In this document: piece after piece, positions 910 to 14,819 of the stretch
Numbering within the stretch: position 1 is the first letter of the stretch
Layout of the letters: each line of letters opens with the position of its first letter
Source of the DNA: a virus
Lineage: Duplodnaviria > Heunggongvirae > Uroviricota > Caudoviricetes
DNA: 18,384 bases
IMG/VR virus record: IMGVR_UViG_2645727539_000015
Reading direction: 5' to 3' (one strand)
Program-made: the position numbers and the translations under genes
The notes under the pieces: model-generated
The model's input: the letters and a program-made list of their open reading frames with translations, nothing else
What the model was told of the DNA's origin: nothing
Database searches by the model: none

Positions 910-1969
910 ATGCTTAATACTGTAAAAATATCCAGTTATGAGTTAATCAACGCCGACTGCCTGGAATTTATGCGGTCGTTACCCGAAAATTCTGTTGACC
1001 TGATAGTCACGGACCCCCCCGTACTTCAAAGTGAAACCCGAGGGCTGGGATAACCAGTGGGCGGGTGATGAAGATTACCTGAAGTGGCTGGACCAGTGTC
1101 TTGCGCAGTTCTGGCGGGTGCTGAAACCAGCCGGAAGTCTTTACCTGTTCTGTGGCCATCGCCTGGCATCTGACATCGAAATCATGATGCGTGAGCGGTT
1201 TAACGTACTGAACCATATCATCTGGGCAAAGCCGTCCGGACGCTGGAACGGGTGTAACAAGGAAAGCCTGCGGGCGTATTTTCCGGCCACAGAGCGCATT
1301 CTGTTCGCGGAACATTATCAGGGGCCGTATCGCCCGAAAGATGATGGCTGTGAGGCGAAGGGCAGGGCACTGAAACAGCATGTGATGGCCCCGCTGATTG
1401 CTTACTTTCGTGATGCGCGCGCTGCCCTGGGGATAACGGCAAAACAGATTGCAGATGCCACAGGAAAGAAAAACATGGTGTCGCACTGGTTCAGTGCCGG
1501 TCAGTGGCAGTTGCCGAACGAAAGTGATTATCTGAAATTACAGGCGCTGTTTGCCCGGGTGGCAGAAGAGAAGCATCAGCGGGGTGAACTGGAAAAGCCC
1601 CACCACCAGCTGCTGGAGACGTATACTTCACTGAACCGGCAGTATGCGGAACTGCAGAGTGAATATAAGCATCTGCGGCGGTATTTTGGCGTGACGGCGC
1701 AGGTGCCGTACACGGATGTGTGGACGCACAAACCCGTACAGTTCTATCCCGGGAAACATCCGTGCGAAAAACCGGCAGAAATGCTGCGGCAGATAATCAG
1801 TGCGAGCAGTCGTCCGGGAGACCTGGTTGCAGATTTCTTCATGGGGTCAGGTTCAACGGTAAAAGCGGCGCTGTCACTGGGACGTCGGGCGATTGGTGTT
1901 GAGCTGGAGACCGGACGTTTTGAGCAGACAGTCAGGGAAGTTCAGGATTTTATCAGTCAGAACGGATGA
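910..1969 (+). pseudogene. beta-class DNA N6-adenine/N4-cytosine methyltransferase, split by a +1 frameshift in a C7 tract
   Basis: ATG 910 frame reads MLNTVKISSYELINADCLEFMRSLPENSVDLIVTDPP then stops at 1051-1053. The track ORF 1031..1969 (GTG start) continues in the next frame and ends with the AdoMet motif DFFMGSGST. Removing one C from the C7 run 1014-1020 gives in-frame DPPYFKVKPEGW, restoring the catalytic DPPY motif. Confidence 0.8.
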
Positions 1970-2428: not shown

Positions 2429-2860
2429 ATGTTTGGAATCTTCAAAAAGAAAACCCGCAGAGCGGCAGCGGAAATTAAAAAGTTTGAAAAACGCGATCTG
2501 GCCCAGGCGGTGATTAACGCCGCATACCTGGTGGCTTATGCCGATGGTGAATGTGAGGCTTCCGAGAAAGCGAAGATCGAACAGGTATTACGTAACCAGC
2601 CCGCCTTGTCCGCGTTTACGTCAGAAATTAATGCGATTGGCGCAACCATCACTGGTCAGCTTGACACCAACTTTAAAATTGGTCGTCGTGCGGCGTTACG
2701 TGAGATCGAGGATGTGAAACACGATATGCGAGAAGCGGAAGATGTGCTGGATGTGGCGGTGGCCATTGCGGAATCAGATGGCGAAATTGAGCCTGAAGAG
2801 CGCAAGGTGCTGGAAGAGATAGCCGGTGTTCTGGGCCTTCGTCTGGAGAATCACCTGTGA
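2429..2860 (+). CDS. TerB-like (tellurite-resistance TerB domain family) protein, 143 aa
   Basis: ATG 2429 with AAAGGA 6-7 nt upstream. Two copies of the TerB-type signature hydrophobic-A-x-A-D/S-G-E (AYLVAYADGECEASE and VAIAESDGEIEPEE) in a helical, acidic protein. The track ORF start at 2357 has no RBS. Confidence 0.6.
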   Translation: MFGIFKKKTRRAAAEIKKFEKRDLAQAVINAAYLVAYADGECEASEKAKIEQVLRNQPALSAFTSEINAIGATITGQLDTNFKIGRRAALREIEDVKHDMREAEDVLDVAVAIAESDGEIEPEERKVLEEIAGVLGLRLENHL

Positions 2861-3021
2861 CGGTAAAACTGCGCCTGGCCATTGTGGTAGTTCTGCTGTT
2901 TCTTGTCGTGATGGTGGACTTCAGCAGCCGGATAATGTCAGTGCTGGCAGATGGGATGCTGGTGGCTGGTGTTGTGGTTGTTGTTTTCCCGTTGCTGAAA
3001 AAGAAAACAACAGGTGGTTAG
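2857..3021 (+). CDS. possible small membrane peptide (54 aa), start overlapping the TerB-like stop
   Basis: GTG 2857 overlaps stop TGA 2858-2860 (GTGA); GGAGAA lies 7 nt upstream. Translation VTVKLRLAIVVVLLFLVVMVDF...GMLVAGVVVVVFPLLKKKTTGG has two hydrophobic segments and a basic C-terminus. Absent from the ORF track; the overlapping track frame 2826..3125 is Trp/Cys-rich and looks non-coding. Confidence 0.3.
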   Translation: MTVKLRLAIVVVLLFLVVMVDFSSRIMSVLADGMLVAGVVVVVFPLLKKKTTGG

Positions 3022-3289: not shown

Positions 3290-3386
3290 ACATGCAAAAA
3301 AAGCCCGCGTAGGGGGCGGGCGGTAAGAAATAAAACAAAACGTGAAGAAAATTATTCAGCTATTGGATAATACCTGAGGATTATGA

Positions 3387-3418
3387 GGCTGCGCAACTGC
3401 GCGGCCTTTTTCGTTTTT
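3387..3418 (+). terminator. rho-independent terminator (8-bp GC stem, loop AACT, T5-CG-T5)
   Basis: GGCTGCGC-AACT-GCGCGGCC (one G-U) followed by TTTTTCGTTTTT, about 80 nt upstream of the esterase start. Confidence 0.6.
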
Positions 3419-3497
3419 ACTGGCAGTTGTCTTTTGTGTTTTCAGACTTCAGTCAGTCCTTATCTGATTCAACCCACTATCCCGGCCGGGAGGATTC

Positions 3498-5411
3498 ATG
3501 GCATTTAAACATTATGATGTGGTCAGGGCTGCGTCGCCTTCAGACCTTGCGGAGCGACTGACACAAAAACTGAAGGAAGGCTGGCAGCCGTTTGGCAGCC
3601 CGGTCGCCATTACCCCTTATACCCTGATGCAGGCGATTGCCGCAGAAGGGGATGTCACCACGCCTGTCGTGGTGACACCGGAGGAAGGCGGTGCGGTGGT
3701 GAGCGATCCGACCCGTGAGCCTGAATATTACTATGTGCTGGTCACCGCAGGTCAGTCCAACAATATGGCAACCGGCGAAGGTATGCCCCTGCCTGACAGC
3801 TACGACCGTCCCGATCCACGCATTAAGCAGCTGGCCCGCCGCAGTGTGGTCCGACCGGGTGGTGCTGCCTGTAAATACAACGATGTGATTGAGGCCGATC
3901 ACTGTCTCCATGACGTTGAAGACATGAGTGCCAAAAATCACCCCAACGCGGACCTTTCCCGTGGTCAGTATGGTTGTGTCGGGCACGGCCTGCATATTGC
4001 CAAACGTCTTCTGCCCTATATTCCGGTTAATGCGGGGATCCTGATTGTGCCGTGCAGTCGTGGTGGCTCTGCGTTTACCGATCGTGATGAGGGTACCTAT
4101 AACCCGGAGACGGGGGCAACAGCGGATTCCTCCCGCTGGGGTGTGGGTAAACCGTTGTACATGGATTTAATTGCCCGCACGAAGGCGGCCCTTGAAAAGA
4201 ATCCGAAAAACGTCCTGCTGGCCGTGTACTGGATGCAGGGCGAGGGTGACTGTATGTCTTCAGGTTACACGGGGCATCCGGCGTTGTTTACGGCCATGGT
4301 GAAACAGTTCCGTACCGATCTAGCCGCGTATGCCGGTCAGTGCCTGGGCGGCGATGCGGCCCGTGTACCCTGGGTATGTGGTGACACCACCTTCTGGTGG
4401 AAGCAACAGTACCCGACACAATACAGCCTGGTTTATGGCGCGTACCGTAAAAACAGTGAGCCGAATGTGCATTTTGTCGAACTCATGAAGGATGAGACCG
4501 GTGCGAATGTTCCGACCAATAACCCGGCAGAAGATCCGGATGTGCCGGAAGCAAATTATTACGGTGCAGCATCACGCACGGCGGGTAACTGGACGAACCC
4601 GACACGCGCCATGCATTTCAGTTCCTGGGCCCGTCGCGGCATCCTGCCGGACCGTATAGCCACCGCAATCCTGACCCATGCAGGGCGTAACGGACCGTTC
4701 CTTGCCGGTGGAGATATAACGGAAAACTATCCGGAACCGGCAAAACCGAAGAGTAACGTTACCACCCTGTACAGCGGTGCAGAAAGTGAAGGTGCTTATG
4801 CCGAACAGGGCTGGACGCTGAGCGAAGGTAAGGCGGAAGTGGTACAGGATGAAAGCAGTGCTTCCGGACGGGCGCTGAAACTGAGCCAGGATGAAGCAAT
4901 GAACCTGAAGCTGACCCGTGAAGTGGCAAATGCGGCGGAACTGCTGAAAAACGGCGGTAAAATTACCTGTCGTTTTAAAATACCGGGAAGTGCGAACGGA
5001 AAACAGATAGCCCTGGCGATGTATCTGCAGCTGAAGGAAAGCGATATCCCTGAAGGTGTGGAATTTGCCAATAAGGCGGACGGTACCCATCCGTTCCTGG
5101 TGGCGTTCTATCTGCAGACAGAAACGGATGGCAAACTCAGTCTGATGCACAATGGTGCAGCGCAGACGCGTGTTGCGGGATACGGTACGCTGAACAGTGA
5201 ATGGCACACACTGGAGCTGGTATATCCGGGAGGAGGCCAGAACACGGTGACGCCGTATGTTGATACGGTAAAAGCTCCGACCACACAGCTGTCCTGGTTT
5301 AAATATGAAGGACAGGAGAACACGCTTATTCTGACGGATGCGTCGAATACAGCCACGTATGAAACGTGGATTGACGCGCTGACAGTGGAAGTAAACAGTC
5401 CGGCAGCCTGA
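3498..5411 (+). CDS. nanS-p: prophage NanS-p-type sialate (9-O-acetyl-Neu5Ac) O-acetylesterase, 637 aa
   Basis: ATG 3498 with GGGAGGA 5 nt upstream. N-terminus MAFKHYDVVRAASPSDLAERL is DUF1737-like, followed by a sialate-O-acetylesterase/SGNH-type region (YYYVLVTAGQSNNMATGEG) and a C-terminal domain. The position after the tRNA triplet matches the large esterase ORF of Stx-converting phages as I recall it. Confidence 0.85.
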   Translation: MAFKHYDVVRAASPSDLAERLTQKLKEGWQPFGSPVAITPYTLMQAIAAEGDVTTPVVVTPEEGGAVVSDPTREPEYYYVLVTAGQSNNMATGEGMPLPDSYDRPDPRIKQLARRSVVRPGGAACKYNDVIEADHCLHDVEDMSAKNHPNADLSRGQYGCVGHGLHIAKRLLPYIPVNAGILIVPCSRGGSAFTDRDEGTYNPETGATADSSRWGVGKPLYMDLIARTKAALEKNPKNVLLAVYWMQGEGDCMSSGYTGHPALFTAMVKQFRTDLAAYAGQCLGGDAARVPWVCGDTTFWWKQQYPTQYSLVYGAYRKNSEPNVHFVELMKDETGANVPTNNPAEDPDVPEANYYGAASRTAGNWTNPTRAMHFSSWARRGILPDRIATAILTHAGRNGPFLAGGDITENYPEPAKPKSNVTTLYSGAESEGAYAEQGWTLSEGKAEVVQDESSASGRALKLSQDEAMNLKLTREVANAAELLKNGGKITCRFKIPGSANGKQIALAMYLQLKESDIPEGVEFANKADGTHPFLVAFYLQTETDGKLSLMHNGAAQTRVAGYGTLNSEWHTLELVYPGGGQNTVTPYVDTVKAPTTQLSWFKYEGQENTLILTDASNTATYETWIDALTVEVNSPAA

Positions 5412-10040: not shown

Positions 10041-10130
10041 CCCGCCCAGGGGGGGGTATCATCCGGCGAAAAAAACGATCGCCACGGACACCGCGCCCCC
10101 TCTCATGCAGAGAAAAAATTCCTGTTTCAG

Positions 10131-14597: not shown

Positions 14598-14819
14598 ATG
14601 GCAAAGATCCGATATCTGCAGGGCACGCATGATGCCCGGGCCGGGGATATCCGTGATGTGGCACAGCCGTGTGCGGAGGTGCTGGTTCGCCTGGGAAAGG
14701 GGGAGTACATCACGGTGCGACGTCCGGCAGGTCAGAAAAAGAAACGTGATGCGGAGCATGGCGAATGTGGAACCTTTTACGGCGAACCCGAAAAAACCAG
14801 AAATCAGGACGTGACGTAA
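14598..14819 (+). CDS. hypothetical small protein (73 aa), overlaps the portal start by 55 nt
   Basis: ORF from the track, preceded by a perfect 7-bp hairpin at 14570-14587; no recognisable domain. Confidence 0.25.
   Translation: MAKIRYLQGTHDARAGDIRDVAQPCAEVLVRLGKGEYITVRRPAGQKKKRDAEHGECGTFYGEPEKTRNQDVT

Follow-up and report, generated by a model that had tools for sequence, protein, structure and literature searches.

A frameshifted M.EcoGII-family methyltransferase gene, probably a recent pseudogene, in a Stx-phage-like prophage of Escherichia coli

Gene content of the window and anatomy of the methyltransferase locus

The stretch of DNA analysed here, which we refer to as the window, was the entire contig JHSD01000099.1 (18,384 bases) of an E. 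coli draft genome (assembly GCA_001265815.1). Analysis of its gene order revealed the 3′-end of a WYL-like gene, a 65-aa ORF, a DNA methyltransferase gene, three tRNAs, a TerB gene, a DUF3927 gene and a NanS-p-like SASA esterase gene, followed by lysis, terminase, capsid, portal and head-tail connector genes. The order Q, small ORF, methyltransferase, tRNAs and esterase was common to RefSeq genomes and phages, and the window is the late region, from Q to the tRNAs and onward, of a lambdoid, Stx-phage-like prophage. The genes flanking the methyltransferase in the window included no adjoining nuclease or cognate restriction gene, which makes it an orphan. The features to which the text refers were located at the following window positions:

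562–759, + strand: conserved 65-aa ORF, widespread, which precedes the methyltransferase in lambdoid prophages
910–1053, + strand: 5′ methyltransferase fragment of 47 codons (...VTDPP, ten out-of-frame residues and TAA)
1007–1969, + strand: 3′ methyltransferase fragment in the +1 frame, with the TRD region and motif I; first possible start GTG 1031
1012–1024, + strand: segment coding for catalytic motif IV (DPPY), 13 nt here instead of 12
1014–1020, + strand: C7 run, site of the one-base insertion; 6 nt in relatives (CCCGCC, TCCGCC or TCCCCC)
1832–1858, + strand: AdoMet-binding motif I (DFFMGSGST, FxGxG)
2010–2259, + strand: tRNA cluster (CAT anticodon, Arg-TCG, Arg-TCT), directly downstream of the methyltransferase as in Stx-type phages
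17675–18384, − strand: ISEc31 (IS3 family) transposase sequence, which starts a few bases past the head-tail connector gene and reaches the end of the contig

The contig began inside a gene annotated as encoding a hypothetical or WYL-domain protein (1–327). In E. coli UPEC 26-1 this WYL-like gene followed the Q antiterminator and preceded the small ORF located 5′ of the methyltransferase; among 5,426 complete E. coli genomes, only 22 carried the 1–327 segment. The 65-aa ORF was followed directly, ahead of the methyltransferase, by a terminator-like hairpin with a T tail (746–763), recognised as a consensus match only. Should this hairpin work as a terminator, the methyltransferase could be transcribed only with Q-mediated antitermination, and such a need would fit the silence of M.EcoGII that has been reported in lysogens.

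Downstream, the tRNA with the CAT anticodon was assigned to Met by ARAGORN and was annotated as tRNA-Ile in RefSeq relatives. The interval between the tRNAs and the esterase (2429–3021) encoded a TerB-family protein of 143 aa and a DUF3927 protein of 54 aa; at the place of these two genes, just downstream of its methyltransferase, phage 1720a-02 encoded stx2A. In other assemblies the same TerB protein was encoded beside an hsdM/hsdS pair of a Type I RM system. An intergenic G8 run (10049–10056), flanked by the HNH gene and the small terminase gene, was G7 in the relative E. coli strain 4, with no coding consequence. The portal gene (14765–17350) contained a 162-bp tandem repeat between 16292 and 16881 (3.6 copies, 92% matches). 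At the right end, the contig of a second assembly, which is described below, stopped at window position 17737, also inside ISEc31. ISEc31 thus interrupts the morphogenesis genes of the prophage, which is consistent with a decaying element, the only sign of a prophage defect being this IS at the contig end.

Translation of the methyltransferase gene from ATG 910 gave MLNTVKISSYELINADCLEFMRSLPENSVDLIVTDPP, followed by the ten out-of-frame residues VLQSETRGLG and a TAA stop codon at 1051–1053, yielding a product of 47 aa with the C-terminus ...LIVTDPPVLQSETRGLG. The +1 frame was open from 1007 to a TGA at 1967–1969; it read ...TPPYFKVKPEGW... and, taken from 1007, ...TPPYFKVKPEGWDNQW... on through DFFMGSGST, which was encoded at 1832–1858. 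The earliest start codon in the +1 frame was the GTG at 1031, past the position of DPPY, from which a product of 312 aa could be translated. In the native sequence the DPPY and FxGxG motifs therefore lay in different frames. The sequence between 1000 and 1029 was ctgatagtca cggacccccc cgtacttcaa, and its C7 run was the sole run of six or more Cs on the + strand of the window. Removal of one C in silico, leaving C6, gave GAC CCC CCG TAC (DPPY) and a continuous protein of 352 aa.

The initial annotation had described the gene in these terms, with a methyltransferase N-terminus from ATG 910 up to DPP and a stop at 1051–1053, the remainder including DFFMGSGST in another frame, and a six-C run that would restore GAC CCC CCG TAC. 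Translation confirmed each of these observations, the repaired frame being uninterrupted and matching PF01555. Its reading of the locus as a DNA methyltransferase gene broken by one extra C within the DPPY codons is also supported, as neither fragment can hold the complete catalytic motif. The number of C7 and G7 runs in the window was unremarkable (5 observed, 4.75 expected from shuffles), and the C7 run was notable solely for its position at the frame break.

Family assignment of the repaired protein

Comparison of the repaired 352-aa protein with Pfam revealed a match to PF01555 (N6_N4_Mtase) across residues 29–340 (E=5.8e-44; 151 bits, with a cut-off of 26.7). DPPY was found at residues 35–38 and FMGSG at residues 310–314, which is the beta-class order of DPPY (motif IV), TRD and FxGxG (motif I). 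The protein also matched solved beta-class adenine or N4-cytosine methyltransferases, for example M.RsrI and CcrM. Alignment with the M.EcoGII sequence printed in the supplement of PMC11551740 showed that 320 of 349 residues were identical (~92%), a lower bound given that this text was machine-read and contains a few OCR errors. Identity to the methyltransferase of phage 1720a-02 was 94% (332 of 352 residues).

Of the 5,426 complete E. coli genomes, 1,880 carried a homologue, as did Stx2-converting phages, and its position was the same throughout. Among the full-length matches listed, the span was 1059 bp and the annotation was DNA methyltransferase or methylase; intact relatives were either 1059 bp or 1050 bp in length. 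Among the loci that were fetched, 47 of the 49 other full-length homologues were intact. The matches included homologues from STEC 95NR1 and 95JB1 (95.4% identity), which have been listed as 'nonspecific' M.EcoGI/GII homologues (PMC6602927).

A strong similarity to M.EcoGII has been noted for the methyltransferase of phage 1720a-02 (Murray et al. 2018, PMC5778455). M.EcoGI and M.EcoGII are non-specific N6-adenine methyltransferases encoded by cryptic prophages of E. coli O104:H4 C227-11, and the E. coli prophage methyltransferases have been described as a 'very large family' (PMC5778455). Both enzymes have been reported as silent in normal growth and deleterious under constitutive expression, with induction presumably turning them on (PMC5778455; PMC7544214). 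Taken by its sequence, the window gene would be a broken member of this M.EcoGI/GII family of orphan beta-class N6-adenine methyltransferases: the domain, the motif order, the identity and the context all fit such an assignment, whereas an intact frame does not.

The C7 tract in two assemblies and in relatives

The 312-aa downstream product was recorded from two NCBI assemblies, that of JHSD01000099.1 and that of AIBG01000187.1 (GCA_000446685.2). AIBG01000187.1, a contig of 16,856 bases that is also IMG/VR UViG 2548876859_000008, was reconstructed in whole (L002 and L294) and was identical to the window between 882 and 17737 save for one substitution at 16769 (A vs C). As the contig ends differed, these are separate assemblies. 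The lone SNP fell in the 162-bp tandem repeat of the portal gene and may therefore reflect assembly and not a difference between strains. The C7 run was of equal length in both, as were all other homopolymers, including the G8, A8 and T8 runs, the count of seven Cs being that of two deposited consensus sequences which are possibly not independent in strain, library or platform. Additionally, a contig from an unrelated public sequencing run (Logan contig SRR19671077_261, L317) was 100% identical to the window between 3207 and 6518, which places the same prophage lineage in at least one further dataset.

A homopolymer sequencing or assembly error, the alternative named in the initial annotation, would mean that the genome truly carries C6 (GAC CCC CCG TAC) and that the gene is intact. 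A C6 run read as C7 is a textbook error with flow-based and early long-read chemistries, and both assemblies came from draft-genome projects of about 2013–2015. The 312 downstream codons were also perfectly open, with a divergence resembling that under purifying selection, as would be expected of an intact gene. However, the same C7 was recovered in two assemblies that were deposited separately and differ in their contig boundaries, which argues against random sequencing error, and so does the agreement of all other homopolymers between the two. Comparison with two relatives revealed no other frame-breaking indel in conserved coding sequence across the 18 kb, and the exact repaired 352-aa protein was absent from ~15 billion proteins whereas the 312-aa product was recorded from both assemblies. 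The alternative of an error is weakened in this way to an unlikely residual, and the frameshift lesion, judged from these sequences, is probably real.

The closest relative read GAC CCG CCG TAC, that is, CCCGCC at the tract. A pattern scan of IMG/VR and metagenome contigs, in which the conserved flanks could be separated by any 4–10 bases, yielded 81 other homologous sites: CCCGCC (37), TCCGCC (21), TCCCCC (20), TCCTCC (1), TCCACC (1) and CTCGCC (1). All 81 were six bases long and in frame, none contained a run of six or more Cs, and the sole seven-base allele was that of the window's own lineage. Relative to the CCCGCC of its nearest relatives the window therefore showed both a G-to-C substitution and one extra base, the relatives having no shorter homopolymer at the site. 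The third positions of the Asp codon and of the first Pro codon of DPPY thus vary neutrally in the family.

Further searches agreed with the scan. A targeted metagenome scan found no allele with six or more Cs, and a pattern scan of genome contigs gave 0 matches to a C7 or C6 allele; in IMG/VR such an allele was recovered from the same genome only. The CCCGCC 32-mer, which served as a positive control, was found at 387 exact places in 379 of the 5,426 complete E. coli genomes. Short BLAST of the C6 and C7 32/33-mers against the same genomes returned 0 matches, although the C7 query was possibly masked as low complexity; exact 86/87-mers with C6 or C7, which put the same question with longer sequence, also had no match there. 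A C6 intermediate allele was seen in none of the sites, genomes and metagenomes searched, and an exact look-up of the 47-aa product gave no match. As neither C6 nor C7 occurred in the 81 sites or in the complete E. coli genomes, where CCCGCC occurred 387 times, the tract is lineage-specific.

Several candidates for a closer or similarly broken relative were set aside. Genomes reached through exact matches to the neighbouring proteins (TerB, the 65-aa ORF and the esterase) carried methyltransferase genes of at most 96% identity that read CCCGCC or TCCGCC, and the Logan run with the 100% identical esterase segment did not include the methyltransferase region. The top-scoring protein match, P0001, had an internal duplication, was located on a 2-kb Logan contig and did not belong to this lineage. 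Shorter homologues (302–336 aa), considered as frameshifts at the same site, had intact N-termini with DPPY and carried in-frame internal deletions instead. What looked like an internal stop in L047 and others was just the normal stop of the 349-aa variant.

The initial annotation had further suggested that the tract may be phase-variable. In such a system slipped-strand mispairing would switch the methyltransferase between ON (C6 or C9) and OFF (C7 or C8) at high frequency. Haemophilus, Neisseria, Helicobacter and Campylobacter provide well-known examples of mod genes under homopolymer control, and here too the frame is broken in a homopolymer within the ORF, where slippage from C7 to C6 would restore a perfect DPPY. 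A conserved tract would be expected of such a system, but no run of six or more Cs was present in the 81 sites, the complete E. coli genomes or the metagenomes, and the tract was of the same length in both assemblies of the lineage. Seven bases is also below the usual hypermutable length, known systems usually having 8–9 or more G/C, and E. coli is mismatch-repair proficient; a reversion from C7 to C6 is possible in principle and would be rare. The gene is moreover reported to be silent in lysogens (PMC5778455), in which case an ON/OFF switch would be without phenotype in normal growth. When the 7-nt tract was compared with the hallmarks of phasevarions, it showed neither conservation of the repeat among orthologues nor length polymorphism, in the relatives and the two assemblies compared, nor a hypermutable length. 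Phase variation is thus not supported, and we regard it as very improbable. What was found instead was the pattern that the initial annotation had itself assigned to a simple dead pseudogene, in that the relatives showed no variation in tract length and both assemblies of the lineage were C7. Had the tract varied in length, it would have been a rare repeat-mediated methyltransferase switch in E. coli; nothing found points there.

Origin of the frameshift and comparison with known systems

Comparison of the repaired ORF with eight relatives revealed 41–83 differing positions and dN/dS values of 0.10–0.34 (0.12–0.15 among intact relatives), with no second stop or indel. These values and the lack of a second lesion in this comparison suggest that the gene was under purifying selection until very recently and that the lesion is recent.

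Other copies of the gene were also found to be damaged. Among the fetched loci, 2 of the 49 other full-length homologues were frameshifted, at short A runs. In IMG 2541047426 (L035, a draft) and the finished genome CP038416.1 (L330, locus 3349–4406) one A had been lost from an A4 run, changing GGAAAAGC to GGAAAGC, and in IMG 2531839446 (L020) one A had been gained in an A3 run. Copies of this methyltransferase family thus decay sporadically. Additionally, P0001 (386 aa) carried the internal duplication mentioned above, and P0022, P0024, P0025, P0026, P0073 and P0009 carried in-frame internal deletions of 16–50 residues in the core or TRD; these proteins either represent additional decay or arose where short-read assemblies collapsed at microhomologies.

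We consider the window gene to be a recent, lineage-specific frameshift pseudogene of an M.EcoGI/M.EcoGII-family methyltransferase in a lambdoid, Stx-phage-like prophage, with a probability of roughly 0.77. The first proline codon of DPPY in this lineage is CCC, the usual codon being CCG, and together with the C of GAC it would make C6. One further C (C7) puts the ribosome out of frame after DPP, with a stop ten codons later. The 47-aa N-terminal peptide that results is without the motif IV tyrosine and all that lies beyond it, and the sole possible downstream product, from GTG 1031 with no obvious ribosome-binding site, is without motif IV. As motif IV is split or absent in both products, we infer that no active enzyme is made and that enzyme activity has been lost. 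In the order of events that we propose, a synonymous G-to-C change would have come first and produced an accidental C run in the DPPY codons, on which replication slippage may then have added the extra C. Enzymes of the M.EcoGI/GII type are thought to protect phage DNA from restriction at induction, and the loss of a silent, potentially toxic, phage-serving enzyme from a degrading prophage would be neutral or mildly beneficial to the host.

A different use of the same allele would be recoding, in which a low level of full-length enzyme is made from C7 when tRNA-Pro slips by +1 on CCC-CCC-G, or through transcriptional slippage, down-tuning a toxic enzyme. It is known that tRNA-Pro tends to shift by +1 at CCC-N sites and that peptide bonds form more slowly at Pro-Pro motifs. 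Were the ribosome to shift by +1 at the second CCC, it would read exactly DPPY and then the native sequence. Constitutive expression of M.EcoGII is deleterious (PMC5778455). The arrangement is, however, confined to one lineage and not conserved, unlike what would be expected of a selected recoding signal; between 1000 and 1030 there was no evident stimulatory element (a Shine-Dalgarno-like sequence, or a rare or stop A-site codon), and the efficiency expected without stimulators is about 1% or less. We consider recoding to be highly improbable. The accidental C7 could also be imagined as a primitive switch or attenuator of recent origin that controls a toxic, sequence-independent adenine methyltransferase, an incipient contingency locus seen at its birth in E. 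coli. Rare slippage from C7 to C6 in DNA or RNA, or +1 slippage of tRNA-Pro on CCC-CCC-G, would then yield active enzyme in a few cells, or as a small fraction of the protein, at prophage induction; we give this idea very little weight.

The frameshift pseudogene that we favour was thus correctly observed but is an ordinary one, belonging to a well-characterised and already known prophage gene family. The proper annotation of the locus would be a frameshifted M.EcoGII-family pseudogene, and not two ORFs or a 312-aa 'site-specific DNA-methyltransferase'. The case illustrates how neutral synonymous changes (GAC, CCC and CCG in succession) can build a short homopolymer in the DPPY codons and in this way a local hot spot for frameshifts. 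It is also a further piece of evidence for the sporadic decay of copies of a potentially toxic prophage methyltransferase.

Of the known systems, the closest in kind is M.EcoGII/M.EcoGI. The repaired protein was ~92% identical to M.EcoGII over 349 residues, had the same beta-class motif order, shared a lambdoid prophage home and, like M.EcoGII, falls within the 'very large family' of PMC5778455; in contrast, the window copy has a one-base insertion within the DPPY codons, and its repaired form ends in a 352-aa C-terminus (...FISQNG) where M.EcoGII has that of a 349-aa protein. The methyltransferase of the Stx2 phage 1720a-02 (KF030445, AGR48369) aligned over its full length with 93.5% nucleotide identity and 94% protein identity. 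In 1720a-02 and other Stx2a/2c/2d-converting phages the methyltransferase is likewise situated between the Q antiterminator and the cargo or lysis region, but in those phages it is intact and reads GAC CCG CCG TAC, whereas the window copy is frameshifted. The cargo position also differed, being occupied by stx in 1720a-02-type phages and by the TerB and DUF3927 genes in the window prophage.

The phasevarions of Haemophilus, Neisseria, Helicobacter and Campylobacter resemble the window gene in that the frame of a methyltransferase is set by the length of an internal simple repeat. Their repeats are long, conserved among orthologues and polymorphic both among and within strains, whereas the tract of the window is 7 nt, is found in a single lineage and is invariant in the two assemblies available. 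The copies in CP038416.1, IMG 2541047426 and IMG 2531839446 are closer parallels in the nature of their damage, as they too are otherwise conserved prophage copies with single-base frameshifts at short homopolymers; their sites lie in the TRD or core, whereas the lesion of the window gene lies in the catalytic motif.
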